This document shows positions 4,501-35,533 of a stretch of 64,000 bases of DNA, one piece after another. This stretch comes from Chthonomonadales bacterium (lineage in GTDB: Bacteria > Armatimonadota > Chthonomonadetes > Chthonomonadales > CAJBBX01): positions 5,771 to 69,770 of the forward strand of contig JBBROJ010000005.1 of assembly GCA_038229495.1 (NCBI GenBank), given 5' to 3'. Position 1 is the first letter of the stretch, and each line of letters opens with the position of its first letter. Made by a program: the position numbers and the translations under genes. The notes under the pieces are model-generated. The model was not told the origin of the DNA. It worked only from the letters and a program-made list of their open reading frames with translations, and ran no database searches.

Positions 4501-7500
4501 CTTGGGAGTGGACTATAACGTCAACCTCGCAAACGGGACAGTCACATTCAACGCGCCGCCGCCGGGTCGAGTAAAAGTTTCATACTTCTATCTCGACAAC
4601 GTAGGCCCGACGGTCAAAGACAATACGGCTCCAACGCTTACCGCACCCGGCCCGGCGTCAACGTCGACAAACGACGGCACTATCAACCAACTGACGGGTA
4701 CTCCGGCGTTTGACTTCAAGTACAATGTCATCTACACGGACCCGGATAACCAGCCGCCGACGTATGTGAACGTCGTCATCGACACCAATCAGACAGTCGC
4801 CATGACGGTCGTTGCCGGGCAGGCAACTCCCCTCGATTACACGCGAGGCGTGACGTATGAGACGGGCAAAGTTAACCTGACCGTTGGCTCCCACAGCTAC
4901 CATTTCGAGGCATCGGATGGGGCGGCTATAGCTCGCTTGCTGGCAGCTCCCAACGAGTATCAGGGGCCGACGGTTACCGACCCGACCAACCTGACGAGCC
5001 CCTTGATTCAGCCGTTCCCCAAGGGCAAGTCCAACGATAACTACACCTTCACCATCACCTACAAGAGCGCGCAAGGGAACGCGCCGCCCAGCGGAGGCAT
5101 TGAGGTCAAGCTCACGCCGGTCGCCCCCCTCGCGCCGAATCAGGTACCCATAACGGCGCTGCTAAACGCCATTGATCCGATCGGACCCGCCGAGTTCATG
5201 GCAGGAGTGAGATTCCAGACGCAGCTGACGGCAACGTCCACGCCGGGTCCGAATAAATTGCTTCCGGGAAAGTACGACGTAACTTTCGACTTCCCGAGTA
5301 ACCCAAGTTCCGGCACCGCGCCGTTACAGTTGATTGTGAACGGGCGGCCGAATCTGTACAACGCGGCAGTCGCTCCAAATCCGTCAACCCGATCGGGCGA
5401 CATCATATTCTCGGTCACCTATCAGGACGTGAATGGCGATCCGCCGCAGCGGCCTGCCGGAGGCGCTTCTACTATTAAGTTGTTCACTACGGTTGCGGGA
5501 GTAGAAACCGAGTATATCAAGACGCCTGTTACAACCATTCCGGCTTCGCCAACGGCGGCCGACTTCAAGGCCGGCGTAACCTATAGGTGGGCTGTAGCCG
5601 CAGCGGACTATGTGCCCGGCACCTACTCCTTCAGGATAGAAGCGAAGGACGACCTCGAAGATGCCATTCCGCCAAGCACCACGACAGTGGACGGCACGTT
5701 CACCGTCACTGCCGCGGCGCTGCCGACGCTTAACGAGCCTTCACCCGGAACGCCCGCAACCAATAACGGAACAGTAACACCGCTGAAGGGCGCGAAGGCG
5801 GCAACGTTTACTTACTCGGTAATCTACAAGCATGCGGACAACGTTGCGCCTGCGCCCAGAGTTGGGACCACAGGGCTGGGCACAACGGGAATCCAGCTGA
5901 TAATTGACGAGGGCACGCCAACTGCTCAGGTTATCGATCTTCAGCCGGACCCGGCGGCAACGCAGCCATATAACTACGCAAACGGCGTGAAGTATACGTA
6001 TGTCGCGCCTTCGGGTTCACTCGCATCGGGCGCCCACACGTACTACTTCAAAGTGGCGGACCGCCTGACAACGGCGGTGTTACCGGTAACGCCGGGCCAG
6101 AAGTATAACGGCCCAACGGTCAACTTTGTACCGTCGCTCAGCGCTCCATCGGTGCAGGTCGTTGGCTCGGCAGCAGCATCAACGGTTACGAACAACGCAC
6201 TGACGCCACCGATCACGACGAACACCAAGTCCCAGATCGTGTTCAAGGTGACCTACACGGACTCCGACTACGTTCCGGGGAGCCCGGCTCCCACGGTTAC
6301 TGTAACCGTAGCGCCAAGCCAGGTGATTACGCTAAACCCGCCTGCCGGGCAGAACGACTTCACCGCCGGAATCGTATTTACGTCCGACCCGCAGGGCGCG
6401 ATTCCCCCTGGAGCGAAGACGTTCCACTTCGACGCTACCGACCAGCTCGATACGGTTAGGCTGCCGGCAGGCACGACCGAGATCTCCGGGCTGACCATAG
6501 CTAATGTTGCCAGCCTGGACAAGGTGTCGGCCATCACGGCGCAGGACCCGCTGGGCGGCGTGCTGACGCCACTCACCGGGCCGTTGTCCACCACGTTCAC
6601 GTACAGCGTGCTGTATATGAACTCAGACAACACGCCGCCTTCGTTTGTAAACCTCATTATCGATGAGGCTACAAATAAGGTCGTGGTGCCGCTCACAAAG
6701 CTAACCTCGGGTAACAACTTCGTTACGGGAGTTGTCTACCAGGGACAGTACCGTTTCAAGACCGGCGGGACGCACAACTTCCGGTTCGAGACGGCCGATG
6801 CGGTGAGCCCAACCTACATAGCCAAGTATCCGGCAGACGGATCGGTCATTGCCGGCCCGACCGTCAACGAGGCCAAGTTCGCCGACCCGACGTTCAATCC
6901 GGCGAAGCCGACCGTCAGCCAGCCGGTGACCGTTAACACGCAGTTAATTACTACGCCGCTGCGCGCCACGGACATTGCGGTCCAACTGGTTAGGCCGGAC
7001 GGGACCGGAGTGAGCGACACCGCCCACTCCGCCGCGGACGGCACCATCGCTTACACCTTTACTCCGACCGAGACGGGTGATTGGAGAATCAGGTTCAGTT
7101 GGGCGGGTGAACCCGGCGTTTACGATGCTGTTACGCAGGAGTTCTCCTTCGCCGTCACCGGATACCAGATTTCACTCGATTCCGGTCAGTTGGATATGAT
7201 CTCTTCGCCGCTCGTACCGGTAACGCCCGATCCGACCATTACACTGGGCGTGACGGACGGCTCTAGTAATCCGTTGGCCGTCACCGTGTTGAATCTAATC
7301 AAATGGTCGCCTGCTCTCGGACAGTACCTGCTGCTCAATCAGGACGGCAACTTCCCCGGCATGACGGGGGGAGAAGGCTTCTGGGTACGCCCGAGCCAGA
7401 GCGTTGTTCTCAACCCGAGAGGGAAGGTCGTTGATCAGACCCAGCCATTCACCATCCCGCTTGTAACGGGCTGGAACATGGTCGGCTCCGTGTACCTCCA

Positions 7501-8482
7501 GGACATCAACTGGAGCGCGGCGAAGGTCAGGGTCAACGGACAGTTGATCAATATGGCGGACGCCGGCCAGTATGTACGGCCCATCGCTTGGACGTACAGC
7601 AAGCAGGCGGGCGGCTACCAAATGGTCACCCTTCCTGACGGCGTGTTTAAGACGGGGAGAGGCTATTGGGTCCACGCCGTTCAGAACACTGACCTCGTAC
7701 TCTCGCCGCCCGGAACTCGCGCCGCTAACGAGGGCCGAGACGCCGTTCAGCGCTCTGTCAGCCTGCAAATCATGGCTCGCAGCGGCCCGGTGAGCGATCA
7801 GGATAACTACGCTCCGCTCACCTCCGCGGGCAACTCCCGCCTGGCGCTGCAGGAGAAACCGCCGTACTTCGGCGAGCATGTGAATATCCGCCTGCTCACG
7901 GAGAAGGTCGAGCTCACCGGCGAGACCCGCGCGGCGGCGGCGAACGCCAGCAACGTCGTTGTATTCGAGGTCGAAACGGATCGTGCGAACAAGGACGTCA
8001 CCGTCCAGTTCCCGAACCTGAGCGTGCTCGGACGCAAAACCGAGGTCACGCTTGTCGACCTGGCCACGAACACGCGCAGCGCCCTGGGAACGACCGCCGG
8101 TCTCACGTACAACACTGGAGATAACGCGAAACCGCATCGATTCGCAGTCATCATGAATACTGCGACCATCAGCGGCAGGCTGCTCATCTCCAGCATGGCG
8201 GCCTCGGGCGGGAATAGCCGCAGCCCGGCAATCTCGTTCTCCTACAACATCTCGGGCGGAGCAACCGTCAAGGCCCAGATTGTTGGAGGAGCCGGCAGCC
8301 AGGTCATCCGTACCCTCGACGCCGGACGCGCTGTCCCGCAAGGCGTGAACAACGTCGTCTGGGATGGCAAGGACAACAAGGGCGTGCCGGTGGCCTCGGG
8401 CAGCTACATACTCAAAATAACGGCCACGGACGACAAGGGACACAATGCCAATGGTGTCCTGCCGGTAACCGTAGTCCGCTAA
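1589..8482 (+). CDS. Giant (~2297 aa) secreted surface or adhesin-like protein with tandem Ig-like modules and an FlgD-Ig-like C-terminus
   Basis: The ATG at 1589 is preceded by GGGGAGAG. Signal peptide 'MKRLSSVLSRAAALVLFGALIVNRASA'. At least 8 modules carry 'F.F.V.YTD.DN.PP'. C-terminus 'VVWDGKDNKGVPVASGSYILKITATD'. A single uninterrupted 6.9 kb ORF. Confidence 0.85.
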   Translation: MKRLSSVLSRAAALVLFGALIVNRASAVPTITTPEVLATTVAGLETGTDNTQFVFRADITRSGNTVALITAPGPDAPRVVIDPFDPANPEFGGASTFPMVQMPNTNMWFVYVRGSLLNGGSSGFGRQHTWSILAREAPDTGGTLMNGTNAAPKSGNLRVEPSSGPSTVSIIPVLRRADGSYVDDKRLIPGQLGNGLRLDPEDTTAPNDGGSAHFYTFRVRVVTRGGLPLQYVKRRETFEWRDHRYDQPPFASDGTIGSGFLVLNYNTGVDLALIDPDGNTHFCAMEIDPEAPNGGVNQGAVYLPDTRYPNTFVHPQGSGQYSGGGVYYRYRMLPTQHIFNWNTSLPGEGPFTAFGGPSLPDSLPAIPIGFNIGQNPLAVGPEIIGRPFANEYVGFAGQDRTTSRGSTAPPFPNYTNTFHRAGQWRYYFIASTDLRPPRRAGFPTNGDQATSLSQDALVDLYGADEGAYGSGRDSDDAGNPVFNFNPYGHPFVGVLLSDGGWTDDLPENNHPGTRGNSFRSRVTTKTRVRFMVRVTKADETPLPLQAVRVYIDDTPHSMQILNSELYRNGKTFYFDTTFANTNQVGQHRIYFQVDAGGPVGGNFSAIWPRRDWGGPNSGESTGDGRYVDPQSLLAPYGFVDNTAINFGTLQRVGKNYLLEPLVNSRPVLSNPSVTPPSGSEGQPFTFEITYTDADNDPPVNAFVVVNDPNQPEQQYTMNIDPATPLPVNYRNGVKYRFTVTLPVTLDTSHFYYFKFRDNWNNFQSYGISTIRREFGEWATLPSGDDNGVPSSKFAGPIITSNKRSVLSDAAFSFSDPAQTSATFYDFLIKYSDGDNQPPANIKFYLSSNGGASYDAGTALVPAESSTNYVTGVLYHLPNRIQLKTSVPVGSNYRYKFVSSDGVQATDTTLIRVGSGQRDNTAHELKSVGGSPVTFGDPNGTAFNPSTKDWTAGSFLLYLVDGNDVPLITQPTLGVDYNVNLANGTVTFNAPPPGRVKVSYFYLDNVGPTVKDNTAPTLTAPGPASTSTNDGTINQLTGTPAFDFKYNVIYTDPDNQPPTYVNVVIDTNQTVAMTVVAGQATPLDYTRGVTYETGKVNLTVGSHSYHFEASDGAAIARLLAAPNEYQGPTVTDPTNLTSPLIQPFPKGKSNDNYTFTITYKSAQGNAPPSGGIEVKLTPVAPLAPNQVPITALLNAIDPIGPAEFMAGVRFQTQLTATSTPGPNKLLPGKYDVTFDFPSNPSSGTAPLQLIVNGRPNLYNAAVAPNPSTRSGDIIFSVTYQDVNGDPPQRPAGGASTIKLFTTVAGVETEYIKTPVTTIPASPTAADFKAGVTYRWAVAAADYVPGTYSFRIEAKDDLEDAIPPSTTTVDGTFTVTAAALPTLNEPSPGTPATNNGTVTPLKGAKAATFTYSVIYKHADNVAPAPRVGTTGLGTTGIQLIIDEGTPTAQVIDLQPDPAATQPYNYANGVKYTYVAPSGSLASGAHTYYFKVADRLTTAVLPVTPGQKYNGPTVNFVPSLSAPSVQVVGSAAASTVTNNALTPPITTNTKSQIVFKVTYTDSDYVPGSPAPTVTVTVAPSQVITLNPPAGQNDFTAGIVFTSDPQGAIPPGAKTFHFDATDQLDTVRLPAGTTEISGLTIANVASLDKVSAITAQDPLGGVLTPLTGPLSTTFTYSVLYMNSDNTPPSFVNLIIDEATNKVVVPLTKLTSGNNFVTGVVYQGQYRFKTGGTHNFRFETADAVSPTYIAKYPADGSVIAGPTVNEAKFADPTFNPAKPTVSQPVTVNTQLITTPLRATDIAVQLVRPDGTGVSDTAHSAADGTIAYTFTPTETGDWRIRFSWAGEPGVYDAVTQEFSFAVTGYQISLDSGQLDMISSPLVPVTPDPTITLGVTDGSSNPLAVTVLNLIKWSPALGQYLLLNQDGNFPGMTGGEGFWVRPSQSVVLNPRGKVVDQTQPFTIPLVTGWNMVGSVYLQDINWSAAKVRVNGQLINMADAGQYVRPIAWTYSKQAGGYQMVTLPDGVFKTGRGYWVHAVQNTDLVLSPPGTRAANEGRDAVQRSVSLQIMARSGPVSDQDNYAPLTSAGNSRLALQEKPPYFGEHVNIRLLTEKVELTGETRAAAANASNVVVFEVETDRANKDVTVQFPNLSVLGRKTEVTLVDLATNTRSALGTTAGLTYNTGDNAKPHRFAVIMNTATISGRLLISSMAASGGNSRSPAISFSYNISGGATVKAQIVGGAGSQVIRTLDAGRAVPQGVNNVVWDGKDNKGVPVASGSYILKITATDDKGHNANGVLPVTVVR
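3590..6800 (+). repeat. Protein-level tandem array of at least 8 divergent ~100-110 aa modules inside the giant ORF
   Basis: Recurrent 'P..G....F.F.(V/I).Y.D.D(N/G).PP ... G(V)(K/T)Y ... H.Y.F.A.D', e.g. 'FTFEITYTDADNDPP', 'FKYNVIYTDPDNQPP', 'FTYSVLYMNSDNTPP'. The DNA copies are diverged. Boundaries are approximate. Confidence 0.65.
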
Positions 8483-8560
8483 TTCAGGGATATGACGGCT
8501 AATAGAGAGAGGCTCTCAACGACGCGGGCCTCTCTCCTCTCAGGAGGAAACTCAATTACC

Positions 8561-9439
8561 ATGAGAATGTTCCCAGTGCGCCGCGGTCCGGCACATTTCA
8601 GCCGGACCGCGGCTGGCCGCAGCGCGCATAATATGCTTCAGGTTTGCGCCATCGGGCTGCTGGCAGTCTCCGCAATCTGCGGGCGTACTGCCGCGTCCCC
8701 GGAAGGTTCCGCAACGGTCAACCTATCGCAGGCAGTCAAGCGAACGGTCCTCGTATTCCCATTTGACATGCCGTCAAGCGAGCCGCCGTCAAAGGCGCCC
8801 CCAAATAAGGATGAGGTATCGCAGCTGCTGACCGATACGGTCGTGTCGCGCCTTCTGGCGTCCGGTCAATATACGGTAGTCCAGTACCACCAGACGCTCC
8901 CGCCCGTTGCCCGTCTGCATCTGGACCAGCAGTTGACGGACACCGATGTTAAGCCTCCATTTGCCGAGGATACAACCAAAGCAACGAAGATCACCAAGCT
9001 CGTAGGCTACGACATCGCATTTCTTGGCGCAGTGGACGAATATACCTACAATGAAGCCGATAACCTGGCGGATGTAGTTGTGCGCGGCCAGCTCGTGGAT
9101 GTAAAAACAGGCAAGAGCATCGGCCCTCCTGTAATTCTCAAGGCATCCGGCGTCAAGGGCGGCACAGCCAAGGAACCAGCCAAGGCGATGGAAGCTGCGC
9201 GAGCAGCCGGCGGTCAACTTGCCCAAAAGCTTGTTCCTTTATCGACCGCGCCCATTCAGCAGCCCACGAATCCGATAACGAACAAGCCCGCGACCGAGCC
9301 TCACAAAAAGCGCCGCAATAACAGCGGTCTTTTGCTCGGCCTTCTGGCAGTGGGCCTCGGCATAGGGATTGGGCTGGCAAGCAGCGGCGGCGGCCACGGA
9401 AACTCCGCCGGCAACGACACTCCGCCCGCGCCGCCCTAG
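8561..9439 (+). CDS. Secreted or membrane-anchored protein with a CsgG/LpoB-like alpha/beta domain and a C-terminal TM segment
   Basis: AGGAGGAAA lies ~10 nt upstream of the ATG at 8561. Hydrophobic leader 'LQVCAIGLLAVSAICG'. 'VLVFPFDMP...VVSRLLASGQYTVVQ...LVGYDIAFLGAVDEY...VVVRGQLVDVKTGK' resembles CsgG/LpoB/FlgO-type domains. C-terminal 'LLLGLLAVGLGIGIGLA'. The start is uncertain (ORF opens at 8492). Confidence 0.6.
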   Translation: MRMFPVRRGPAHFSRTAAGRSAHNMLQVCAIGLLAVSAICGRTAASPEGSATVNLSQAVKRTVLVFPFDMPSSEPPSKAPPNKDEVSQLLTDTVVSRLLASGQYTVVQYHQTLPPVARLHLDQQLTDTDVKPPFAEDTTKATKITKLVGYDIAFLGAVDEYTYNEADNLADVVVRGQLVDVKTGKSIGPPVILKASGVKGGTAKEPAKAMEAARAAGGQLAQKLVPLSTAPIQQPTNPITNKPATEPHKKRRNNSGLLLGLLAVGLGIGIGLASSGGGHGNSAGNDTPPAPP

Positions 9440-9612
9440 CGTATCTCTCTGCCAAATATTCAGTGAGCGAGGAGGCGGCGGCGCTAATCGTGCCCGCCAA
9501 GAATAGTGCCTCCTCCTCCTCGCTTACTCATAACATGATACGTACCAGCGTGGTTCATAAACGCGCTGCATTCGCCCCCTGCCTCCCGCCGTCGCTGCAC
9601 GCCCGCAACACG

Positions 9613-11610
9613 ATGAGCATCAGAAAAGTCTCCCCGCATATTGTCGTGGCCGCCGTCTTTACGCTTCTTGCATCCGCGCCTGCCAGCGGCATCCCCACGA
9701 TTAAGCTCCGAGTAAACCGCTCGGCTATCCTGAGTGACGGCCGGGACGCCTCGGAAATTGTTGCGGAAGTGCGAGACAACACGGGAAACTTTGTGCCGAA
9801 TGGTACCTCCGTGCGGTTCGAAACGAGCCTTGGGGTCTTCCAGCAGGGGATGTCGCCCAGCGTCAATGCAAACACGCAGGCCGGCCAGGCGCGGGTTCGA
9901 CTTGTGGGACAGCAAAAGGGTACCGCGAAGGTATTCGCCAGTATGCAGGGGGGTGTTTCGGAGCCGGTTGAGGTTGCTTTTACGGACGACCCTACCGAGA
10001 CTTTTCAGGGTAACTCTTACATCGACGTTTTAGCTACGCGGTCTCTTCTGTACAGCGCCAATGACCGGGTTATCGAGGCGGCGGGCAGGCAGCGAAAGGA
10101 CGGGGAAAAGGGACTGCCGGGGGCCAGCATTTCCTATCGCAACGTTGAGATTATCGCGGACACGATCCAGTTGAATTGTACGGACAGCGTAGTTCGGGCA
10201 ACAGGAAACGTGCGCGTATCGCGGGGCGGGAAGCGATTCCAGTGCTTACGTCTCAACTTTCCGCTTCTGGGGAAAGAGGGATATGCAATTACCGAAACGG
10301 CCAAGCGGATAGTCCCCGTAAAGATTCATACGAACGATCTGACCACGGTTCCCGCAGCGGATGGACTCTCTCCCGTAGTATTTCAAATGGTCGATATCAG
10401 CGCGGCTACGCAGGCGATCGAAGCGCGCGAGATTCGACTCTTCCCCGGCGAAAAACTTCAGTTCAAGCACCCCAAATTCTACACGGACGGTCAGAAGCTC
10501 GTTTCGATGCCGTTCTATTCCCTGCCGCTCTATTCCACCCAGCTTTTCACCGATCAGTTTGTCAGTGTCGGAACCCAGGGCCTGGGAATCGACATGCCGC
10601 TGTACTACGACTTGTCGCCGGTCTCGATGGGAGTATTTCACGTTCGGCATGGGGAGCAGAGCGGTCGCGGGGCGTTTGCAACCAGGCCAGGCTGGTCCAT
10701 GGACATGATTCAGCAGTACAACTCCAGCGGCGCGGCGCGCAGATATACGGGTGAGATGGGGCTGACAGGCATCTCGCGCACCGACTGGGGCTTCCGATGG
10801 AATCACAGCCAGGAGTTCAACACCGATACCCGCGCGTCATTCGCACTCGATCTCCCGCAGCACCGAGAAGCGTTTCTGTCGAGCAACCTGAATCGCGAGC
10901 TTGGGCCGCTGCATTTGGGCCTTAATCTATCGGGGAACCGCTCGCTGTCCGGCAGCCGCTCAAGCGGCTCCGAAGCAGATGCCTATCTGGAGACGACGCC
11001 CCGCAAAGTCGGCAAGACAGGCTACATGATGGCGTTTGGAGGGACGGCGAGCATGGCGCACACCAAGTATGAGGCGTTCGCCAACAGCATTGCGAGCGAG
11101 GGAGTGCAGACGCGCTTTTTCAGCAAGCCGTTTATGCTGGGCCGCGCAACAACGCTCACGAACTACGTTACTCTGGGGCACGCCTGGACAAACCAGGGTC
11201 GCTCCGGCCCCTCAATCCTGACGTCGCTGACCATGAATCATACGTTTCACGGCGGCGCTACGCTCCAGACCACCTACGATTACACTAAGTCGCCCGCCGC
11301 CTATATAAACACGGGGAGCCACCGCCTCAGCACTAACCTGGTGATGAACGCGGGCGGCAAATGGAATCTGTATGTCTACAACAGCACGCTGCTCGATGCG
11401 AATGTATCGACGACGATCGGCGACTTCAATTACGCCATTGCCCCGCGCTGGCGAATGACGCTTTCAGCCACGTTGCAGCGGTTCACGGGATCGCAATACC
11501 ACGATTACCAGTTGGGCTTCGCGCGCAGCATCAGCGGGCGCGACTTCGTCCTTTCCTACTCTACACTTAGCCACCGCATCTTTTTCGACATGGAAGCAAG
11601 CCGCTTCTAG
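9613..11610 (+). CDS. Outer-membrane beta-barrel protein with an N-terminal Big_1 Ig domain and an OstA/LptD-like segment
   Basis: Signal peptide 'MSIRKVSPHIVVAAVFTLLASAPASG'. 'LSDGRDASEIVAEVRDNTGNFVPNGTSVRFETSLG...AGQARVRL' is intimin/invasin Big_1-like. 'IIADTIQLNCTDSVVRATGNVRVSRGG' is OstA-like. The C-terminal half is rich in alternating residues and ends '...FFDMEASRF' (terminal Phe beta-signal). The start is uncertain (ORF opens at 9463). Confidence 0.65.
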   Translation: MSIRKVSPHIVVAAVFTLLASAPASGIPTIKLRVNRSAILSDGRDASEIVAEVRDNTGNFVPNGTSVRFETSLGVFQQGMSPSVNANTQAGQARVRLVGQQKGTAKVFASMQGGVSEPVEVAFTDDPTETFQGNSYIDVLATRSLLYSANDRVIEAAGRQRKDGEKGLPGASISYRNVEIIADTIQLNCTDSVVRATGNVRVSRGGKRFQCLRLNFPLLGKEGYAITETAKRIVPVKIHTNDLTTVPAADGLSPVVFQMVDISAATQAIEAREIRLFPGEKLQFKHPKFYTDGQKLVSMPFYSLPLYSTQLFTDQFVSVGTQGLGIDMPLYYDLSPVSMGVFHVRHGEQSGRGAFATRPGWSMDMIQQYNSSGAARRYTGEMGLTGISRTDWGFRWNHSQEFNTDTRASFALDLPQHREAFLSSNLNRELGPLHLGLNLSGNRSLSGSRSSGSEADAYLETTPRKVGKTGYMMAFGGTASMAHTKYEAFANSIASEGVQTRFFSKPFMLGRATTLTNYVTLGHAWTNQGRSGPSILTSLTMNHTFHGGATLQTTYDYTKSPAAYINTGSHRLSTNLVMNAGGKWNLYVYNSTLLDANVSTTIGDFNYAIAPRWRMTLSATLQRFTGSQYHDYQLGFARSISGRDFVLSYSTLSHRIFFDMEASRF

Positions 11611-11672
11611 ACCGCTTTTGCTCCCTTCATCCATTCCAGAGAACATAAGCTGCAGAGAACATAGGCGGTTGC

Positions 11673-13811
11673 CTACGGCCTCTTATGGACCGCCGCGCTT
11701 CGCGTTGTTGCTGCCGTCGGAGCATTTACCGCGGTGAAGCCCGACCATGTGTACGTATAGCGAATGTTGTTCACCATACTTACCTGAGTACCCCCCTGTC
11801 CATTCAAATTATCATCCAAAGAGAGGACAATCGGCAGATGCGAACGGGCGTTTGCATTGTTGTCGAAGTACTGATTGTTGATGCCTCCCACCGTGGTCAG
11901 ATCTGCAGTGTCATGTATCGTACTCGGTGGGAATAATGGTGGCGCTCCTTTGAACAAAGCTGTTACCGCGATTCCCTTCCACATAGCGGCGTTGGCGGAG
12001 ATGTACATCTTGTGCCCCTTAAGATCAACGTTCATGTAAGCGCTGAAGCCTCCTTGATCGTCAGGGAAGGGATTGATGAGAGAGAATGGAATCGACCCAC
12101 TCCCCGAGAGATCGATCCGCCTGGTATCGCTATCGGAGGTGCCGCCAGCCTCGTAATCCGCTGTAGAGTCTCGTCCCTCGAGACCGATCTGGATAGAATC
12201 CGTTTCGCCCGACGCAGCGGGCGCATAAGGATAGGTCACCGCCTGGCCCGGCGCATATCGCCAGCCATGCACGTCTCCTCGAAAAGTGAGGTTCCAATTG
12301 ACCTTGTAATTCTCGGATCCCCAGTTCAGATGCTCGACCAGCAGGTGAATCTGGCCTTTCCACATCGTAAGTGGAACCGCGTTGGAAGGGTGTCCGCGGA
12401 CCGTCACGACTACATCACCGGATAGGCCGGGAGATAGTCCGTCGCAGGTGATCTCGCTTTGTGTCCAGCCTCCGGGCCGAATGCTGAGAGCTGCCCCACC
12501 TACTGTCACCGTGCCGCCGCCCTGGGGGTCGCTCCCGAACTCTCCGAAGAGCACGAGCTGGTTTCGTATCTCATCGACGGCAACGTTGCTGATGCTCGGG
12601 GCGAACAGGCCAAAGCTGTCGGAATCGGCCTTGGTTGTGCCTGCGCTGGTCGAAAATGCCAGAAAGGCAGTCGGACTTATCAGGTCCGGGCCGCGCGCCT
12701 CATTCAAGTGCTGGTTCTGCATGTCTTTAAGTACCGCCGGCCAGTCGAAAGCGCGCTGGGGTGGATTCTTTGCAAGTGTTCCCAGGTTATTCTGGCCGGC
12801 CAGACTGTTATAGAGGTATTGGGCCGACTGAGCGGAATCGCCCGCACGAATCAGATCCGTCCAGCCGGCATAAGTGCCGCCGGGTGGCTTCGTGCACACC
12901 TGTCGGAATGGTGTTCCCTCAATATTCGAATTGCTCATGCAAGTGTTGAAATAAACAAAACAATTATTGTTGAGCGTCCAATTCTTAGCTGCGAACTTTG
13001 GGGTGATATAGTATTGCTTGTTTAATCCAAACGAATTGCCAACGATGTCCGCCGTAAGGGAAGGCCCGATGAATCCCTCTTGCAGCTCTGCGCTGTGCAG
13101 GGCCTCATCCACTAGATTCAGTCCGGTCGCTGTAGGGAGACAATAGACAGGCGATCCCGAGCTGCCATCCTTGTTATAAACCCTGGCAAACGTGCCGTGG
13201 CCCTCTACATGGACTATATCCTCGTTTTTTACACTATGTTCCAATGCGTCCAGCGTACCGTCTGACCTGGTGACGCTGTAGCCTACGCTCGTCAGGACTG
13301 TTTTTATCGTGTCTAGAACTGCCGAGGACTGAATTTTCAGTGGTATGTCGGTGAGTTTGCCAAAGTTATTGAAAATCACCGCATTCTTGCCTGTGCCAAG
13401 CTGGTTGGCAGCGCGGCTCCCTGCGTGCAACGCTACAGGCGGCAGTTTGGCTGCTTTAGACGAAGCCGAATAGTCGCTATACGGGCGATTGTTTACGATG
13501 ACGAGAGTCTGCCCGCCGCCTTTGAAGTGGGCCGAGATGGAACCAAACTGCGGATCATATTGTGTCTGGTCGAATTCAGGCCGGGTCTTGATGTACTGAA
13601 AGAGCGTCTGGTTATCGGCCTTCGGATCCTGGTGCGGAAGCGATGCGAACTGCGCGCTGATCGCATCCATCGCCGCGGACCGCTGATCGAATGAAAGGGA
13701 GGCCGTTCCTCCCCCGCCCCCGCCGGGTGCGCCTCCGCCTCCGCCGCACCCACTTAGAAAGACGGTCGAGAGACACGCCAGTAATGTTGACCATACGCAA
13801 GCAGATTTCAT
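11673..13811 (-). CDS. Lipoprotein of unknown function with an IPT/TIG-like segment and a possible caspase-fold His/Cys pair
   Basis: Lipobox 'VFLSGC' followed by a Gly-rich linker. 'VTVGGAALSIRPGGWTQSEITCDGLSPGLSGDVVVTV' is IPT-like. 'VHVEGHG' and 'FVYFNTCMS' are a candidate dyad. Confidence 0.7.
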   Translation of the reverse strand: MKSACVWSTLLACLSTVFLSGCGGGGGAPGGGGGGTASLSFDQRSAAMDAISAQFASLPHQDPKADNQTLFQYIKTRPEFDQTQYDPQFGSISAHFKGGGQTLVIVNNRPYSDYSASSKAAKLPPVALHAGSRAANQLGTGKNAVIFNNFGKLTDIPLKIQSSAVLDTIKTVLTSVGYSVTRSDGTLDALEHSVKNEDIVHVEGHGTFARVYNKDGSSGSPVYCLPTATGLNLVDEALHSAELQEGFIGPSLTADIVGNSFGLNKQYYITPKFAAKNWTLNNNCFVYFNTCMSNSNIEGTPFRQVCTKPPGGTYAGWTDLIRAGDSAQSAQYLYNSLAGQNNLGTLAKNPPQRAFDWPAVLKDMQNQHLNEARGPDLISPTAFLAFSTSAGTTKADSDSFGLFAPSISNVAVDEIRNQLVLFGEFGSDPQGGGTVTVGGAALSIRPGGWTQSEITCDGLSPGLSGDVVVTVRGHPSNAVPLTMWKGQIHLLVEHLNWGSENYKVNWNLTFRGDVHGWRYAPGQAVTYPYAPAASGETDSIQIGLEGRDSTADYEAGGTSDSDTRRIDLSGSGSIPFSLINPFPDDQGGFSAYMNVDLKGHKMYISANAAMWKGIAVTALFKGAPPLFPPSTIHDTADLTTVGGINNQYFDNNANARSHLPIVLSLDDNLNGQGGTQVSMVNNIRYTYTWSGFTAVNAPTAATTRSAAVHKRP

Positions 13812-29836: not shown

Positions 29837-31054
29837 TTAGCGCAGGCTGCTCGTCTCGACGCCGAGCTTCTTCAGAGCTTCTTCGATCCTGGTGTCGCCG
29901 TCGCGGAAACCCACGATATTCGCGGCGATGCGGCCCTCTTTATCGATTACGAACGTAGCGGGTATGCCCTTGACTCCATAGAGCCGGCCCGCGATGCTGT
30001 TTTCTGAATCCTTGCCCGCCGGGTCGAACGCGAAAGTAAAGGTATACCTACTCTTGTTCGCAGGCAGCCACTGTTCGTAGGCGTCTTTGTCGTCCCACAC
30101 GCAGACGCCCAGCACAACGACGTCCTTGTCCTTCACCTCGCGCCACACGCGCTCGACGTGCGGCATGGACTTCTGGCAGGGGACACACCAGGTCGCCCAG
30201 AAGTCCACTATCACGACCTTGCCCTTGAAGTCCGACAGATGCACGGTCTCGCCGTTCCTCCCGTCGGCAGAGAAGTCTGGAGCGATTGGGCCGCTGGATG
30301 CGATTTCGGCCTTCTGAAGCGGCGGGAGAGAGGTGACCATATTGGCGCCTACCGGAAGCGCCCGCACGAACGTGCCGGCGGGAATGAACTTGTCCACCTC
30401 GATGTCGTTGTGGTTTTCGGTAATTATCGCCTTATCGTCTCGAAGCAGCGTGACGCGGCGGATGAGGAAATCGCTTTCCGATACGTAGACCTTCGCGTCG
30501 TAGTCGGAATCGTAGCGGAAGCTCAGCACGTAGACTATTTTGTCACCGACACTCTGGGGGCCCGTCACGGTTGCGACTGCAAGGTCTTTGGCAAGCATGA
30601 TGTCCTGATTCCGCAGGTTTCCTCCGAGCAGAATCGACAGCAGGCGCGCGCCTGGCGACGGCACGTCCACGCCTCGGAGTATGTCGGAGCCCATCAAAAG
30701 CAGCGGAGCCTTGCCTTTGGTATAGGCCTTCCTGTCCGGTCGAAGGGCGATAAGGGTCGAGCCGTCGCTGACAACCACTGTGTCGAGCTTGTCCCCGTTA
30801 ACTTCGAGCAGATAGCGGTTCGGGCGCTGCGCGGCGAGGGTCACGGTGGCGGACTGGTCCTTGTCACCTGTTTTTCTGGTCAGCTCCGCCGTATCGCGAT
30901 AGGAGCGCATGGAGCGGTACGTGCTGTTGAGCCGATTCAAAACCGCCCCGGCAGAAAGTGCCTGAGGCGTTGCCGAGGACTCAGCGCCACACGTGAATCC
31001 TGCGGACAGCGCCAGCGCGCAAAAGGCGGCTTTTGGAAGCCATCGAGTGTTCAT
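29837..31054 (-). CDS. Secreted LolA-like (DUF2092-like) domain fused to a TlpA/ResA-type thioredoxin-fold oxidoreductase
   Basis: The C-terminus '[22 protein letters not shown]' carries a CxxC motif and an AhpC/TSA-like fold pattern. The N-terminal ~200 aa resemble lipoprotein-sorting LolA-like domains and the 62446 ORF. Confidence 0.8.
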
Positions 31055-31141: not shown

Positions 31142-31268
31142 ACACACCTGCAACGGCCTGGCCTGGCAATACCGGAGTCCGAGACCTTCTATATATTAGC
31201 GTAAACCCGCGAAATATTAGCGGAAAGCCGCGAATTCGGCTGCATTCGCAATTCATGGGCAATTCGGG

Positions 31269-31925
31269 CTAGCCGAGCCCCAGCCAGCCGTGCATCAGGA
31301 ACCATACGCGGTCGATTAGCAGCGCCATGCGAGCCATCACCGTTGCGCCGAACATAGCCCCGAAGGCGAACATCATCATGTACCGGCCCGTGCGCGCCGA
31401 CGCCTGCACGGCTTTGTTCTTCTGCTCGAACGAGAAAAAGAAGTAAGACAGCACGCACAGGACCACCAATACAAATACCGCGTTGCTCAGGCTGAGACCT
31501 AACGACGTAGCAGCAGAGCCCGGAGGCGGCTTCACGCCCCAGACCTGCTTGAACGAGTTGCGAATCTGCGGCACGTACTCGTTCGCGGTCTGCTGGAATA
31601 TCTGCCCTGCCACGAATCCGAGCAGAATTCCAATTGATATGCGGCTCATCCAATTGTAGCGCTTGCTGTAGATTGTGTAGAACAGGACTCCGGCTCCGAG
31701 TGCAAATATCCACGGCCACTGCCCGCCCCACATCGGGACCCACCACTGCGGTTCCAGCGTTTCACGCCACGTAGCCTTGATGAGATACCCCGCGGCAAGC
31801 CCGATGAAGAGGTGCTCGAAGAGCCGGTAAACCCTGTTCTCGCGATACAGGAGCGAGAACAGCGCCAGCGTTCCTATGGCGCCGAACCAGATGCCTGGCG
31901 TTGTCGACCACCCCTGCGGTTCCAT
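31269..31925 (-). CDS. Polytopic membrane protein (~6 TM), unknown function; operon gene 6 of 6
   Basis: 218 aa with repeated hydrophobic spans. The start overlaps the upstream stop by 1 nt. Confidence 0.65.
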   Translation of the reverse strand: MEPQGWSTTPGIWFGAIGTLALFSLLYRENRVYRLFEHLFIGLAAGYLIKATWRETLEPQWWVPMWGGQWPWIFALGAGVLFYTIYSKRYNWMSRISIGILLGFVAGQIFQQTANEYVPQIRNSFKQVWGVKPPPGSAATSLGLSLSNAVFVLVVLCVLSYFFFSFEQKNKAVQASARTGRYMMMFAFGAMFGATVMARMALLIDRVWFLMHGWLGLG

Positions 31926-32782
31926 TACGCGTCTCTCTCCATTTTGCGAGTGGCAATCATTCCGTAGTTGCCCAGCCCGATCAGCACGAAGAGCAGCACC
32001 AGGGCGAGTGAAATGGGAGCAATCGCCTTGGTTGTGAATCCCGGTTTCTTGAGCGTTCCGTCCTCGATAAGCAGATGTTCATATTCGGCGGCGCCCTTGA
32101 TTCCAAACATCATGCCGGCCATCTGGCCGGCGTCGATATAGTTGTATAGCTCCGGCGCCATGACGGAAGTGGGGCCGTAGCCAAACTTAGCGGGAGTGGA
32201 CCCGATGACGAACTGAATCCAGTTCTTGTAGGTGCCCGCTGCCGAAATCTCGATGATGAGGCCGACGTCCTTGGTGTTGCGAACCCCCGCCATTACCGGC
32301 AGCCGCTGCAGGTCTGTGAGCGCGATACGCGTGTGCGATTCCGTTTTGAACGTATCGCGAATATCGAGGACCATCCCTTTAAGCGTACCGTTTGCCTCCG
32401 CGCGATAGCCCCAGTTGATCCAGTCGCGGCCATACACGTATCCGTATTCCGGCGCAAGCTCCTCTACCAGCTCGCGCGCAAGATTCGTCGATTGCTGCTC
32501 CCACGCCATCAGCGCAATCCGGACTTTGCGGCGCATGAGATGCCGGAGAATGACCTCGGTTTGCGGTCGGTTCTCGCCCTGCGTGGAAGCGCTCCAGTTG
32601 GTGCAGAGAATGGCAAGCTTGTCGGCGGGGGCGTGCTCTACCGCGTCATACAGCGCACGCGTCTGCGGCCCGATGATGAGCGGCAGGGGAATGGGGACGA
32701 GGAGGCCTATTATCACTAGCGCCAGCAGAATCAGGTAGAGCCATCTGGGGTCTATTCTCTGTGTCCAGTGGGTCCGATTCAT
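31925..32782 (-). CDS. Bitopic membrane protein (N- and C-terminal TM with a large soluble domain), unknown function; operon gene 5
   Basis: 'WLYLILLALVIIGLLVPIPLPLII' at the N-terminus and 'IAPISLALVLLFVLIGLGNYGMI' at the C-terminus. No recognised motif. Confidence 0.65.
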   Translation of the reverse strand: MNRTHWTQRIDPRWLYLILLALVIIGLLVPIPLPLIIGPQTRALYDAVEHAPADKLAILCTNWSASTQGENRPQTEVILRHLMRRKVRIALMAWEQQSTNLARELVEELAPEYGYVYGRDWINWGYRAEANGTLKGMVLDIRDTFKTESHTRIALTDLQRLPVMAGVRNTKDVGLIIEISAAGTYKNWIQFVIGSTPAKFGYGPTSVMAPELYNYIDAGQMAGMMFGIKGAAEYEHLLIEDGTLKKPGFTTKAIAPISLALVLLFVLIGLGNYGMIATRKMERDA

Positions 32783-32817
32783 AACAGCTCCATATCCCCT
32801 GCATATTCACTATTTCG

Positions 32818-33621
32818 CTATTCGGGGGTCGACTCGAAGAAGGCCCCGCGCTCGAGAGACAGCCAGACGCGAAGCGCGATGGCGAGCGCCCCGATGCCCA
32901 ATCCAAAGTTGATGGCTCGCTGGGCGGCTCCGTTTAGATTTGTTAGCATCCAGTTGCTAATATTGTCCAATCGGAAAATAGAGGTGAACGAGCCGTTGGC
33001 AGGAAGGGACGAAGTGAGGAACTGGCCGAGCGGAATCATGCCCAGCATCACGATGAGCGCTGCGGCCATCATTAAGGTAGCTTCCACGCTTTTGATCCGG
33101 AAGGCCCGGTAGGCGGCAGATATAATATAGAAGGCCAGCGTCGCGAACATCGCGGCGTCGAAGCTGTTGAGCACGTCCCTGAACAGCGAGCGGAAAAACA
33201 TCGACTTATCGAAAAAGAGGCCCGACACGGCCATAGTCACCATCCCCAGAAGCAGCACGAGACTATTTTCCCAACTTGCGCGTTGCCGTATCACGTTGTT
33301 CCCGTGAATCCGAATGAGACTCATCACGCCCAGGCCGAGCGTGAAAGCGGTCAGGACGTTCGCGACATTTCCAACGGTCGGCACCGCGAAGGTCATGGGG
33401 TTGTTGCCCGCTGAATCGGCGGGCCAGAACCATTCCAACGCGTAGAAAAGCCCCGCAAGGAACGTGGCAGCCCCGATCGCCACTTTCCGCGCGCGGGGAG
33501 GCAGCGCATGGAGAGCGAAGAAGAGAAAGACGCACAGAACCGCGGCTCCGGCCAGCGCGGCATAGAGCGCCGGGCCATGGAGTGGCGGAAACAGTTTCGA
33601 TAAAAGTGATTTCAGGGTCAT
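32818..33621 (-). CDS. Polytopic membrane protein (~6-7 TM), unknown function; operon gene 4
   Basis: 267 aa and strongly hydrophobic throughout. Same strand and spacing as its neighbours. Confidence 0.65.
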   Translation of the reverse strand: MTLKSLLSKLFPPLHGPALYAALAGAAVLCVFLFFALHALPPRARKVAIGAATFLAGLFYALEWFWPADSAGNNPMTFAVPTVGNVANVLTAFTLGLGVMSLIRIHGNNVIRQRASWENSLVLLLGMVTMAVSGLFFDKSMFFRSLFRDVLNSFDAAMFATLAFYIISAAYRAFRIKSVEATLMMAAALIVMLGMIPLGQFLTSSLPANGSFTSIFRLDNISNWMLTNLNGAAQRAINFGLGIGALAIALRVWLSLERGAFFESTPE

Positions 33622-33626
33622 CTGTG

Positions 33627-33706
33627 TTCAGGTTTCAGGTTTCAGGTTTCAGGTTTCAGGTTTCAGGACGAGCGATGTTCGTGCCGAGACCTGAAACCTG
33701 GAACCT
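33627..33706. repeat. Tandem heptamer (TTCAGGT) x~6 followed by an inverted partial copy
   Basis: The units at 33627-33667 were read directly. 'cctgaaacctggaacctg' at 33689-33706 is their reverse complement, so a long hairpin is possible. It lies inside the operon, between genes 3 and 4. Confidence 0.9.
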
Positions 33707-33710
33707 GCTC

Positions 33711-34523
33711 CTATTTGGGTGTAAGCCACCGTGAAAGGAAGAACGCTTTGGTGGCTTCCGCCGCGCCATAATTCATGGCTGTTATCGTGAGCCCGATGGT
33801 GCCCATAAGCACGAGGAGCCAGATGATGGCCTTCGCGATGTCCTGGCCCGCCAGGCTTCCAAGCAGGGTCGGCTCCCGGGAAATATAGGCGGTCGCGGCG
33901 TAGTATTCATCGCCAATAATCGTGTAGTCGCACGAAGCGATGAGGAACGGAATCTGCGTCGTCTGCGTGGTTCCCGCGATCTGGATTGCGCCCACTGCCT
34001 GGCCTGCTTCCGCGAAGATGAGCGCCTCGGCATAGAACTCGCCGAACAGAAAACTCGCCGCCACCTTTTCGCGGTGAATCAGTCCCGCCACCCCCGCGGC
34101 GAACGCAAACTGGCGGTCCGATATGAAGCGCACGGAATCGGGATCGTAGGCCTCCGCGCGACCGACGGAGGCGTAGGTATCTCGCATAACCTCGTCCGCG
34201 ATCGTGTAGATGGCCGGGCCGTTATCACCGCCGGTAGGAAGCAGGATGCGATTGCCGAACTGCGCCGCCGTCTTGGTAATGTAGCTGAAGATCGAGAGCG
34301 CCTGCATCACGATTACGCCGATAAGCCCTATGCCGGGGACCATGAGGATCGGGCGGCCCATTTCGGTTGCGCGTCCGACCGCCTCATCGATGGCGTTGAG
34401 TCCGGGAATGCGCCGGATGTAGAATTTCCGGCCGCGCTGCGCCATTTTGACGGTCGCAACAATGACGAGGGACCACAGAGTGACCAAAAGCGCGACGGGC
34501 CAACTGTTGCTGGCATGATCCAT
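33711..34523 (-). CDS. Membrane protein (N-terminal, central and C-terminal TM segments), unknown function; operon gene 3
   Basis: 270 aa. 'WPVALLVTLWSLVIVATV', 'LIGVIVMQALSIFSYI', 'AIIWLLVLMGTIGLTITA'. No recognised catalytic motif. Confidence 0.65.
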   Translation of the reverse strand: MDHASNSWPVALLVTLWSLVIVATVKMAQRGRKFYIRRIPGLNAIDEAVGRATEMGRPILMVPGIGLIGVIVMQALSIFSYITKTAAQFGNRILLPTGGDNGPAIYTIADEVMRDTYASVGRAEAYDPDSVRFISDRQFAFAAGVAGLIHREKVAASFLFGEFYAEALIFAEAGQAVGAIQIAGTTQTTQIPFLIASCDYTIIGDEYYAATAYISREPTLLGSLAGQDIAKAIIWLLVLMGTIGLTITAMNYGAAEATKAFFLSRWLTPK

Positions 34524-34535
34524 GGGAAATAGACC

Positions 34536-34889
34536 TCAGCTTGGCGATTTTGACGGACCTTTATCCGCCTGTCCGGCGGGCCGGCTGCCCGCCCGCGAGA
34601 TATCCTGCTTCTCGATCGCCAGCTCCTCGATTCTTTGAATTAGGAGCTCGACGTTCTCTCGCTTCTCCATGAGCCGGGCCGCGATTCGCAGGTTCTCCAG
34701 CCCGATGAATGGCGCGATAAACGGCGACGTAACGATCAGTCCCTGGCTTGCGAAGAAGCTGATCGGCTTGTGCATCTCGAGAAAGAGAATCGCGGGTGTC
34801 TCCATTCCGCGCCTGGTGATCCCCCCCGCAACGGTCTCGATGACCCGATCGCGCTCTTCGGGAGTTACTTCCGTGTACCATTCGCTCAA
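34536..34889 (-). CDS. Small protein with one hydrophobic hairpin, unknown function; operon gene 2
   Basis: 117 aa. The start overlaps the upstream stop by 4 nt. 'PISFFASQGLIVTSPFIAPFIGL'. Confidence 0.55.
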   Translation of the reverse strand: MSEWYTEVTPEERDRVIETVAGGITRRGMETPAILFLEMHKPISFFASQGLIVTSPFIAPFIGLENLRIAARLMEKRENVELLIQRIEELAIEKQDISRAGSRPAGQADKGPSKSPS

Positions 34890-35416
34890 GATGCCGCCTC
34901 GGCCGCCGGTTCCCCGCCGGCAAGCGCGCGAGTCTCGCTTCCAAGCATCCGGGCTTCCACTATTCGCGTGACGTCCTCGCGGCTGCCCGGCTCACCGTCG
35001 GGAGCGAAGCGAAGCAGCACGCCGCGGAAGTTTTCCAGCCTATTGGGAGTTGTGAAAGGGGACAGCTTGGCGGAGCCGGGCAGGTAGTCGACACGCTTCA
35101 CGCGGTCCCAGCCGATCTCCAGCCGGGCGGCGCCATATGCGGCGCATGCACGGCGGCTTGTGATGCGATAGCGAATGGGAAGCAGGTACTCGGACGTCGA
35201 AGAAAAGAGGAGCAGCGGTCCCAGGAGAGCAAACAGGGCGGATCGGAAGATGAGAACTCCGAGGAGCGAGGAAAGAATAATTGCCGCTGCAACAATGACA
35301 ACCCGTGCGCGGGCCGGGTCGCGGCGAAGCAGGTGAACTGTCCATTCGAGCAGGACAGTCTCCTCATCCCTCGGTATTTGTATTCGCTCGATGGCGCGAC
35401 GCGGCAGGTCTCTCAT
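34886..35416 (-). CDS. Two-TM protein with a soluble C-terminal domain, unknown function; operon gene 1
   Basis: 176 aa. GGAGGG RBS upstream. 'VVIVAAAIILSSLLGVLIF..ALFALLGPLLLF'. It lies directly downstream of a consensus promoter. Confidence 0.6.
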   Translation of the reverse strand: MRDLPRRAIERIQIPRDEETVLLEWTVHLLRRDPARARVVIVAAAIILSSLLGVLIFRSALFALLGPLLLFSSTSEYLLPIRYRITSRRACAAYGAARLEIGWDRVKRVDYLPGSAKLSPFTTPNRLENFRGVLLRFAPDGEPGSREDVTRIVEARMLGSETRALAGGEPAAEAAS

Positions 35417-35462
35417 TAAGGCGGGCTGCCCTCCGGATAGAACTTGCTATGCCAGACTTGCT

Positions 35463-35491
35463 GATTATAGAGGAACGCCGGTCCCGTGTCA
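35463..35491 (-). promoter_or_regulatory. Consensus sigma70 promoter (TTGACA-N17-TATAAT) for the six-gene membrane operon
   Basis: On the minus strand, TTGACA is the complement of 35486-35491 and TATAAT is the complement of 35463-35468, with a 17-nt spacer. It is ~47 nt upstream of the ATG at 35416. Confidence 0.65.
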
Positions 35492-35533
35492 ATGACAGAC
35501 GGCTGTGCGCGATGAGTTCAGTTTGTGTGAGAG

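Follow-up and report, generated by a model that had tools for sequence, protein, structure and literature searches.

A block of six genes on the minus strand, here called g1 to g6, lies in a 64-kb window of DNA (59% G+C) from a Chthonomonadales bacterium of the phylum Armatimonadota (assembly GCA_038229495.1, contig JBBROJ010000005.1, positions 5,771 to 69,770). "The window" denotes this whole stretch throughout, and the coordinates of its open reading frames (ORFs) are positions within it. On balance, we lean towards the operon encoding the membrane part of an ATPase-linked machine. The six-gene block is not self-sufficient: an ASKHA ATPase and a partner protein, whose genes lie at other places in the genome, show strict co-occurrence with it. 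Its conserved unit consists of the four genes g3 to g6, with g1 and g2 an addition found mainly in Armatimonadota. The system is real and widespread, and it fits no known class.

The six ORFs are arranged as follows.

34886-35416, minus strand: g1, ORF of 176 amino acids
34536-34889, minus strand: g2, ORF of 117 amino acids, its TTG start overlapping the g1 stop
33711-34523, minus strand: g3, ORF of 270 amino acids
32818-33621, minus strand: g4, ORF of 267 amino acids
31925-32782, minus strand: g5, ORF of 285 amino acids
31269-31925, minus strand: g6, ORF of 218 amino acids

From g1 to g6, the spacing between successive ORFs is -4, 12, 89, 35 and -1 nucleotides. The original prediction, made from the window alone, had listed the same six same-strand frames with these lengths and gaps, and had proposed that they encode a dedicated multi-subunit membrane complex. 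The layout is as it described. The proposal of a complex is partly supported, in that the block is conserved, but the unit is one of four genes and does not stand by itself, the ATPase and partner being encoded elsewhere.

Conservation of the cassette and joint occurrence with an ATPase

Scanning the six proteins against Pfam and NCBIfam gave a single family match, that of g3 to DUF6754 (PF20539), a Pfam entry without a function. The match covers profile positions 10-249 of 257 (E 1.4e-88; 296.8 bits against a cut-off of 27), making g3 a full-length member. NCBIfam gave no match for any of the six, and g1, g2, g4, g5 and g6 have no family in either collection. No ABC, MFS or P-loop family was among the matches of the six proteins, and neither PF00005 nor a known ABC permease family was matched at E ≤ 1. 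Pfam searches with all members of the g4 (52 sequences), g5 (56) and g6 (44) alignments gave scattered weak hits and no family, and 32 homologues of g1 and g2 gave no family and weak hits at most. The profile searches thus agree with the original prediction, which had recognised no catalytic, transporter (ABC, MFS or P-loop) or secretion-system motif; an assignment to a known transporter, secretion or biogenesis family was looked for and none was obtained.

The nearest named homologues of g3 come from Armatimonadota (Chthonomonadales, Fimbriimonadia and Capsulimonas). A scan for relatives of g3, with one genome per species, returned at least 633 stretches; the best 80 named loci among these, together with 10 short loci from relatives, form the set of 90 loci used here. 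The 80 named loci span Armatimonadota, WOR-3, Eisenbacteria, Edwardsbacteria, Stahlbacteria, Fermentibacteria/Aegiribacteria, Cloacimonadales and others. By tblastn, g3 is present in all 90 loci, g4 in 85, g5 in 81, g6 in 69, g2 in 59 and g1 in 50. The order g3-g4-g5-g6 is the same in many phyla, being colinear in 69 of the 80 named loci; ten of the 80 have less than 2.6 kb of downstream DNA and are too short to judge g4 to g6. Recurrence of the gene order across phyla, proposed as a check at the outset, is therefore in keeping with the original prediction. Directly upstream of g3, g1-g2 are found in 38 of the 80 loci, nearly all of them from Armatimonadota, and g2 occurs also in the distant loci L071 and L083 and in a second system of the relative G023. 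Clustering of the ORFs of all loci gave no further family recurring next to the cassette across phyla, which in Armatimonadota lies among housekeeping genes (GlmU-like, PRPP synthetase, RecO, Ffh, TrmD and glycine cleavage). DUF6754 was found in none of 14 well-known control genomes.

DNA of 59% G+C with many long antisense ORFs, as present in the window, might be thought to contain six unrelated neighbours, or ORFs that are partly spurious. This explanation is refuted by conservation and deserves next to no weight. Homologues of every ORF (E between 1e-10 and 1e-125) recur in the same order across dozens of genomes, and the G+C content at third codon positions (0.68-0.79) exceeds that at second positions (0.42-0.52) in the six ORFs, the pattern expected of real genes in DNA of this composition. 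In a profile library search, the g4 family comprises 3082 representative clusters (50% identity) at E ≤ 0.001 and 1067 at E ≤ 1e-30; the family is thus a large one for which Pfam has no model.

In L071 and L083, the latter labelled Fermentibacteria, g1-g2 are located 3.6 kb upstream of g3 with two genes between, giving the order g1-g2-ATPase-partner-g3-g4-g5-g6. The in-cluster ATPase, of 631 amino acids, matches PF13941 ("MutL", the GlmL-type ASKHA ATPases) with E 1.1e-125, and the in-cluster partner, of 374 amino acids, matches no family. The window genome encodes the ATPase on contig C40 (56% identity to that of L071 over 622 aligned positions) and the partner, of about 380 amino acids, on contig C88 (49% identity to that of L071). 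The ATPase matches all 450 positions of PF13941 with 422.8 bits and has a C-terminal extension of about 120 residues; it remains under the NCBIfam cut-offs for GlmL (NF040745; 226.8 against 475), Or-4 (NF040744; 190.5 against 600) and TIGR01319 (167.9 against 204). The second system of G023 is diverged, with g2', g3', g4', g5', ATPase' and partner' on one contig (L100, C158, 4836-12857). Its proteins are 18-30% identical to those of the window, and its g5' is 944 amino acids long with a weak N-terminal zinc-ribbon signal.

Among 41 relatives of the window genome, DUF6754 is present in 35, the ATPase in 37 and the partner in the same 37. DUF6754, ATPase and partner are missing together from the same four relatives, which are 93-99% complete, while the two relatives with ATPase and partner and no DUF6754 are 77% and 64% complete. 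In a sample of 61 genomes spread evenly over the phylum, 53 have both DUF6754 and the ATPase and seven have neither; the ATPase occurs without DUF6754 in one, and DUF6754 without the ATPase in none. G000 (the window genome), G008, G025, G027 and G028 belong to both samples, whose union is 98 distinct Armatimonadota genomes, G000 among them. Both families are present in 84 of these and neither in 11, while three have the ATPase only and none DUF6754 only. In the phylum of locus L090, all 101 genomes have two to six DUF6754 matches and 99 have the ATPase, mostly as a single match. The complete WOR-3 chromosome CP070705 (L081) carries at least three g3-g4-g5-g6 cassettes in tandem (2937-13714) and one GlmL-like ATPase 0.76 Mb away.

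Within 12 kb on C40, the neighbours of the ATPase gene are a nucleotidyltransferase (NTase)/HEPN pair, an aminotransferase and a histidine kinase; none of the genes over this distance matched a mutase family. The pair, made up of NTP_transf_2/Polbeta and HEPN genes (L097, 4949-5709), stands directly after the ATPase gene and may be an insertion splitting the ATPase operon in the window genome. In relatives, the ATPase is followed by a membrane protein of about 220 amino acids and then by the partner, and on C88 its homologue, of 212 amino acids (L098, 737-1375), directly precedes the partner gene. This 212-residue membrane protein is from a large paralogous family, with 27 matches in the window genome, the other 26 being weaker, and matches no Pfam family at E ≤ 1; by its sequence it may resemble the DUF1559 / H-X9-DG pseudopilin-like type.

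Predicted folds and membrane topology of the subunits

Hydropathy indicates polytopic proteins for g4 and g6, a transmembrane (TM) helix at either end of g3 and of g5, and a two-helix hairpin in g1. The topology sketched in the original prediction is therefore broadly right. The hydrophobic spans it assigned to all six proteins are found in g1 and in g3 to g6, but not in g2, where no segment passes the Kyte-Doolittle threshold and a conserved, moderately hydrophobic stretch is present at most; the middle stretch of g3 belongs to a soluble domain in the model.

The AlphaFold2 model of g3, calculated from our own alignment with a predicted local distance difference test score (pLDDT) of 93.3, contains a helix (8-29), a six-stranded parallel alpha/beta Rossmann-like domain (37-216) and a second helix (218-252). 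The hydrophobic stretch 54-84 forms a buried strand and helix of the Rossmann-like domain in this model and is not a TM segment. g3 is the best conserved subunit, with 41-56% identity across 50 homologues from several phyla (alignment A2) and many invariant polar residues, including Cys198, Asp199, Glu166 and Glu172; Arg37, Glu54 and Gln138 also lie on its invariant face. Outside Armatimonadota, a signal peptide and an Fn3-like domain of about 80 residues precede the first TM helix (TM1), and longer forms carry fn3, PKD, Ig-like, He_PIG, PQQ beta-propeller and, once, OmpA-like domains; no solute-binding or enzymatic domain was found in these long forms. The Armatimonadota g3 of the window is without an outward domain. 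Because the signal peptides and Fn3-type fusions are N-terminal, the g3 core is predicted to have its N-terminus outside and its Rossmann-like domain in the cytoplasm, and the charge bias agrees, with 0.6 Lys plus Arg residues before TM1 against 4.4 after.

The model of g5 (pLDDT 93.4) likewise has a helix (12-28), a Rossmann-like alpha/beta domain, here five-stranded, and a C-terminal helix (249-284), so that g3 and g5 share the same build of TM helix, Rossmann-like domain and long TM helix. In g5, the Lys plus Arg count falls from 2.9 before TM1 to 1.2 behind it and rises from 1.4 to 3.7 across the last TM helix; both termini are probably inside and the domain outward-facing, which would place the g3 and g5 domains on opposite faces of the membrane. 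Long fused forms of g5 were looked for and none turned up, which is weak evidence. g4 has a conserved core of six TM helices in the 52-sequence alignment, with both ends predicted inside from the charge bias across the family, and an extra N-terminal TM helix specific to Armatimonadota. g6 has about six TM helices, and Glu37, Arg199 and many glycines are invariant in its 44-sequence alignment; by the same charge measure its ends are both predicted outside, opposite to g4.

The outward domains of the long g3 forms, which include no solute-binding or enzymatic one, the predicted outside location of the g5 domain and the very long TM helices leading from the soluble domains of g3 and g5 would all suit an envelope mechanotransducer or anchor, in which ATP hydrolysis is relayed outward to remodel or tether and no substrate crosses the membrane (compare MacB, FtsEX and LolCDE). 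Several modules per ATPase and two oppositely oriented six-helix proteins are a better fit to substrate-specific transport units, however, and such a mechanotransducer has no known envelope target and would have to work in the window with a g3 that has no outward domain. We consider it rather unlikely.

Foldseek searches of PDB with g3 and g5 gave nothing at E ≤ 0.001, and VIA-align against PDB gave flat lists of generic Rossmann-like folds, with Z scores of about 8-10. The structural-genomics protein MT0777 of Methanothermobacter (PDB 1kjn) ranks first for g5 (Z 10.0, 140 residues, root mean square deviation (rmsd) 3.4), and 1kjn_B ranks second for g3 (Z 10.2, 134 residues, rmsd 3.5). MT0777 differs from both in being soluble and without TM helices, at 11-13% identity; the match is one of a shared common fold and says nothing on function. 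A sequence-profile search of PDB gave no hits for g3 and, for g5, a best E of 0.42 or above. In ESM Atlas, g3 retrieved DUF6754 clusters only and the partner retrieved unnamed clusters. A complex prediction with g3, g4, g5 and g6 scored 0.73 and one control with g5 swapped scored 0.72, a result neither for nor against binding.

Comparison of profiles with hhalign gave paralogy probabilities of 0.5% for g3 with g5 and 0.2% for g4 with g6, so no homology was detected in either pair, and "two inverted pairs" is an architectural statement and not a demonstrated duplication. The common build of g3 and g5, their shared neighbour 1kjn_B and the opposite predicted orientations of g3 and g5 and of g4 and g6 would be accounted for by a self-contained secondary transporter or channel made of these two inverted pairs; its link to the ATPase would be indirect, in line with the lack of an ATPase gene in the operon. 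The low paralogy probabilities argue against it, as do the 98 Armatimonadota genomes, none of which has DUF6754 alone, and the ATPase genes located inside the cluster in L071, L083 and G023. We consider such a transporter or channel quite unlikely.

g1 has its membrane hairpin at about residues 34-74, followed by a beta-rich C-terminal domain, and Trp25, Trp103, Arg131 and Gly132 are invariant in an alignment of 17 homologues. One of 16 g1 homologues matches bPH_6 (E 0.002; 18.5 bits, under the cut-off of 22), and g1 of the window does not. g2 has a conserved motif, PAILFLE.HKP...PF, and a C-terminal amphipathic helix; none of the 16 homologues scanned matches a Pfam family.

The partner protein has a weak RnfC_N/biotin-lipoyl-like signal in its N-terminal part (RnfC_N, E 0.028) and, near its C-terminus, a weak KOW-like (Spt5) match in the PDB profile search, where all its hits, this one and others, had E 7.5e-4 or worse; these are weak indications of a barrel-sandwich/KOW-like protein. 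RnfC_N or Biotin_lipoyl is found in 11-21% of the members of similar Atlas clusters. These signals, and the invariant polar residues of g3, raise the question of an enzyme or redox complex bound to the membrane, such as a relative of Rnf or Na+-NQR poor in cofactors, with a catalytic g3 domain and the partner in the role of NqrA/RnfC. The subunit pattern is alike in the two small six-helix proteins of opposite orientation, each of about 200 amino acids (NqrD/E or RnfA/E), the bitopic subunit with an outward domain (NqrC/RnfG) and the soluble barrel-sandwich partner. In Rnf and Nqr, conserved cysteines of the six-helix subunits hold an intramembrane iron centre; the g4 and g6 alignments (52 and 44 sequences) contain no invariant or near-invariant cysteine. 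No sequence relation was detected, hhalign giving 0.1% (g4) and 1.3% (g6) against RnfA/E, a weak comparison with a template of just two sequences. PF02508 is over its cut-off in one of the 61 Armatimonadota genomes of the even sample, 53 of which have the cassette; no Fe-S, flavin or NAD motif family was matched in Pfam or NCBIfam, and the system has an ATPase instead of a dehydrogenase. A redox complex of this kind is unlikely, and we would put its chances as slim.

Promoter, intercistronic hairpin and neighbouring genes

Three further features are associated with the operon.

35464-35492, minus strand: sigma-70 consensus promoter TTGACA-N17-TATAAT upstream of g1, motif scan score 12/12
35429-35434, minus strand: GGAGGG, a Shine-Dalgarno-like site read from the sequence, 12 nucleotides before the g1 ATG
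33627-33707, minus strand: intercistronic hairpin between g3 and g4, with 5.9 tandem copies of the heptamer CCUGAAA pairing with inverse copies upstream

The promoter and GGAGGG site reported in the original prediction are both present, and the promoter is the single exact match to TTGACA-N17-TATAAT in the window, none occurring in 100 shuffles. A near-consensus form, TTGACA-N16-18-TANAAT, is present on the same strand within 300 nucleotides upstream of g1 in 18 of the 49 loci having g1 plus enough upstream DNA; the background is seven matches in 1.1 Mb, the remainder of the same loci. This conserved promoter, a consensus match and not transcription evidence, suggests strong constitutive expression of the operon in part of the phylum. 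The distance of 12 nucleotides from GGAGGG to the g1 ATG is rather long. A sequence scan found no convincing intrinsic terminator 3' of g6.

The hairpin between g3 and g4 has a folding energy of -42.1 kcal/mol (z -6.5), and no Shine-Dalgarno-like sequence is present between it and g4. Similar heptamer arrays occur at other intergenic sites of the same genome, on contigs C4, C7, C17 and C29, and one is found about 50 nucleotides upstream of the operon of the 212-residue protein and partner on C88. The heptamer hairpin might be a regulator site that the scattered components of the system have in common; such arrays occur at unrelated intergenic sites too.

Downstream of g6, a spacer of 214 nucleotides contains two copies of a 21-nucleotide direct repeat (31193-31234, 90% match). 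The next same-strand gene (29837-31054, minus strand) encodes a protein of 405 amino acids with a signal-like N-terminus and a WCVPC thioredoxin-type motif, which we read as a TlpA-like thiol-disulfide oxidoreductase with an extra N-terminal domain. ORF clustering did not find this gene conserved next to the cassette in the other loci.

Proposed mechanism and relation to known systems

If the system is an ATPase-linked machine, the six genes would form one operon for the membrane-embedded part of an eight-component system, with g3-g4-g5-g6 as its core, g1 and g2 as small accessory subunits, and the ATPase and partner as the other two parts. The ATPase and partner would dock on the highly conserved cytoplasmic domain of g3, and movements driven by ATP would be relayed, by way of the long TM helices and the membrane proteins of opposite orientation, to the outward g5 domain. 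The outcome would be either that a substrate is carried through the cytoplasmic membrane or that mechanical work is done on the envelope. What is observed are the genes, their conserved order, the modelled folds of g3 and g5 and the joint presence and loss of DUF6754 with the ATPase and partner; assembly, docking, coupling to ATP, direction and substrate are our inference. Within this ATPase-linked reading, we somewhat favour transport over force transmission alone, because there are several modules per ATPase and the polytopic pair is oppositely oriented; force transmission stays in play through the outward domains of the Fn3, PKD, propeller and OmpA types. Going further, we tentatively suggest a new class of primary active machine powered by an ASKHA ATPase where others have a P-loop enzyme. 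A single ATPase with its partner would be shared by interchangeable modules of four proteins, from one to several in number; every module would consist of two oppositely inserted pairs and would move a specific substrate or transmit force. This fuller proposal is possible rather than probable.

Several observations weigh against an ATPase-linked machine. The ATPase, the partner and the operon are located at three separate places in the window genome, so the coupling depends on co-occurrence and on synteny in other genomes. These genomes are not independent, the cases with neither component coming from few lineages (family f6, family f12 and three genera of f3). One named locus, L024, is a single exception to the conserved cassette, having g1-g2-g3 and downstream room and no g4-g6. 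The outward orientation of g5 is a prediction from charge bias, and no known transporter or motor fold was recognised, the neighbour lists of the Rossmann-like domains being flat and generic.

The closest relatives of the ATPase are GlmL/MutL and Or-4, accessory proteins of B12-dependent glutamate and ornithine mutases, with which it shares the full PF13941 profile. GlmL-type proteins probably act on a Rossmann-like B12-binding subunit, and this would parallel the proposed docking on the Rossmann-like domain of g3. The ATPase differs from GlmL and Or-4 in being below the equivalog cut-offs, in its extension, in having no mutase nearby and in being kept or lost together with the membrane proteins and not with a mutase. 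Transport of B12 or corrinoids, considered via the GlmL link, was dropped: g3 has no motif of the B12-related DxHxxG type, and Foldseek gave one weak B12-domain row, at rank 23.

The logic of one ATPase per genome for one to six membrane modules, some of them in tandem, is like that of energy-coupling factor (ECF) and ABC importers. The system differs from these in having no ABC ATPase, P-loop, EcfT or S-component, and in an ATPase of the actin/Hsp70 fold. Its module is composed of four different proteins, with predicted folded domains on both faces of the membrane.

Compared with the DUF6754 cassette of other phyla, the Armatimonadota form is without the outward Fn3-type domain and has g1-g2 upstream and the extra g4 TM helix. 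What the window adds is this form of six genes, g1-g2 included, together with a consensus promoter that is conserved and the scattering of the system over three loci. We found no literature on DUF6754 or MTH777, and none relevant on membrane complexes with GlmL or actin-like ATPases or on Armatimonadota clusters and omics, in a search that did not extend to subscription journals.

Phyla that are uncultured or little studied commonly carry the system, and five of the six window proteins have neither a Pfam nor an NCBIfam family. Should an actin-fold ATPase indeed drive it as a transporter or force transmitter, the system would represent a new energy-coupling principle in membrane biology and would account for a set of "hypothetical" genes found in thousands of genomes. 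Some carriers can be cultivated, among them Capsulimonas corticalis, which a database record names, Fimbriimonas ginsengisoli and Chthonomonas calidirosea, making the question directly testable.

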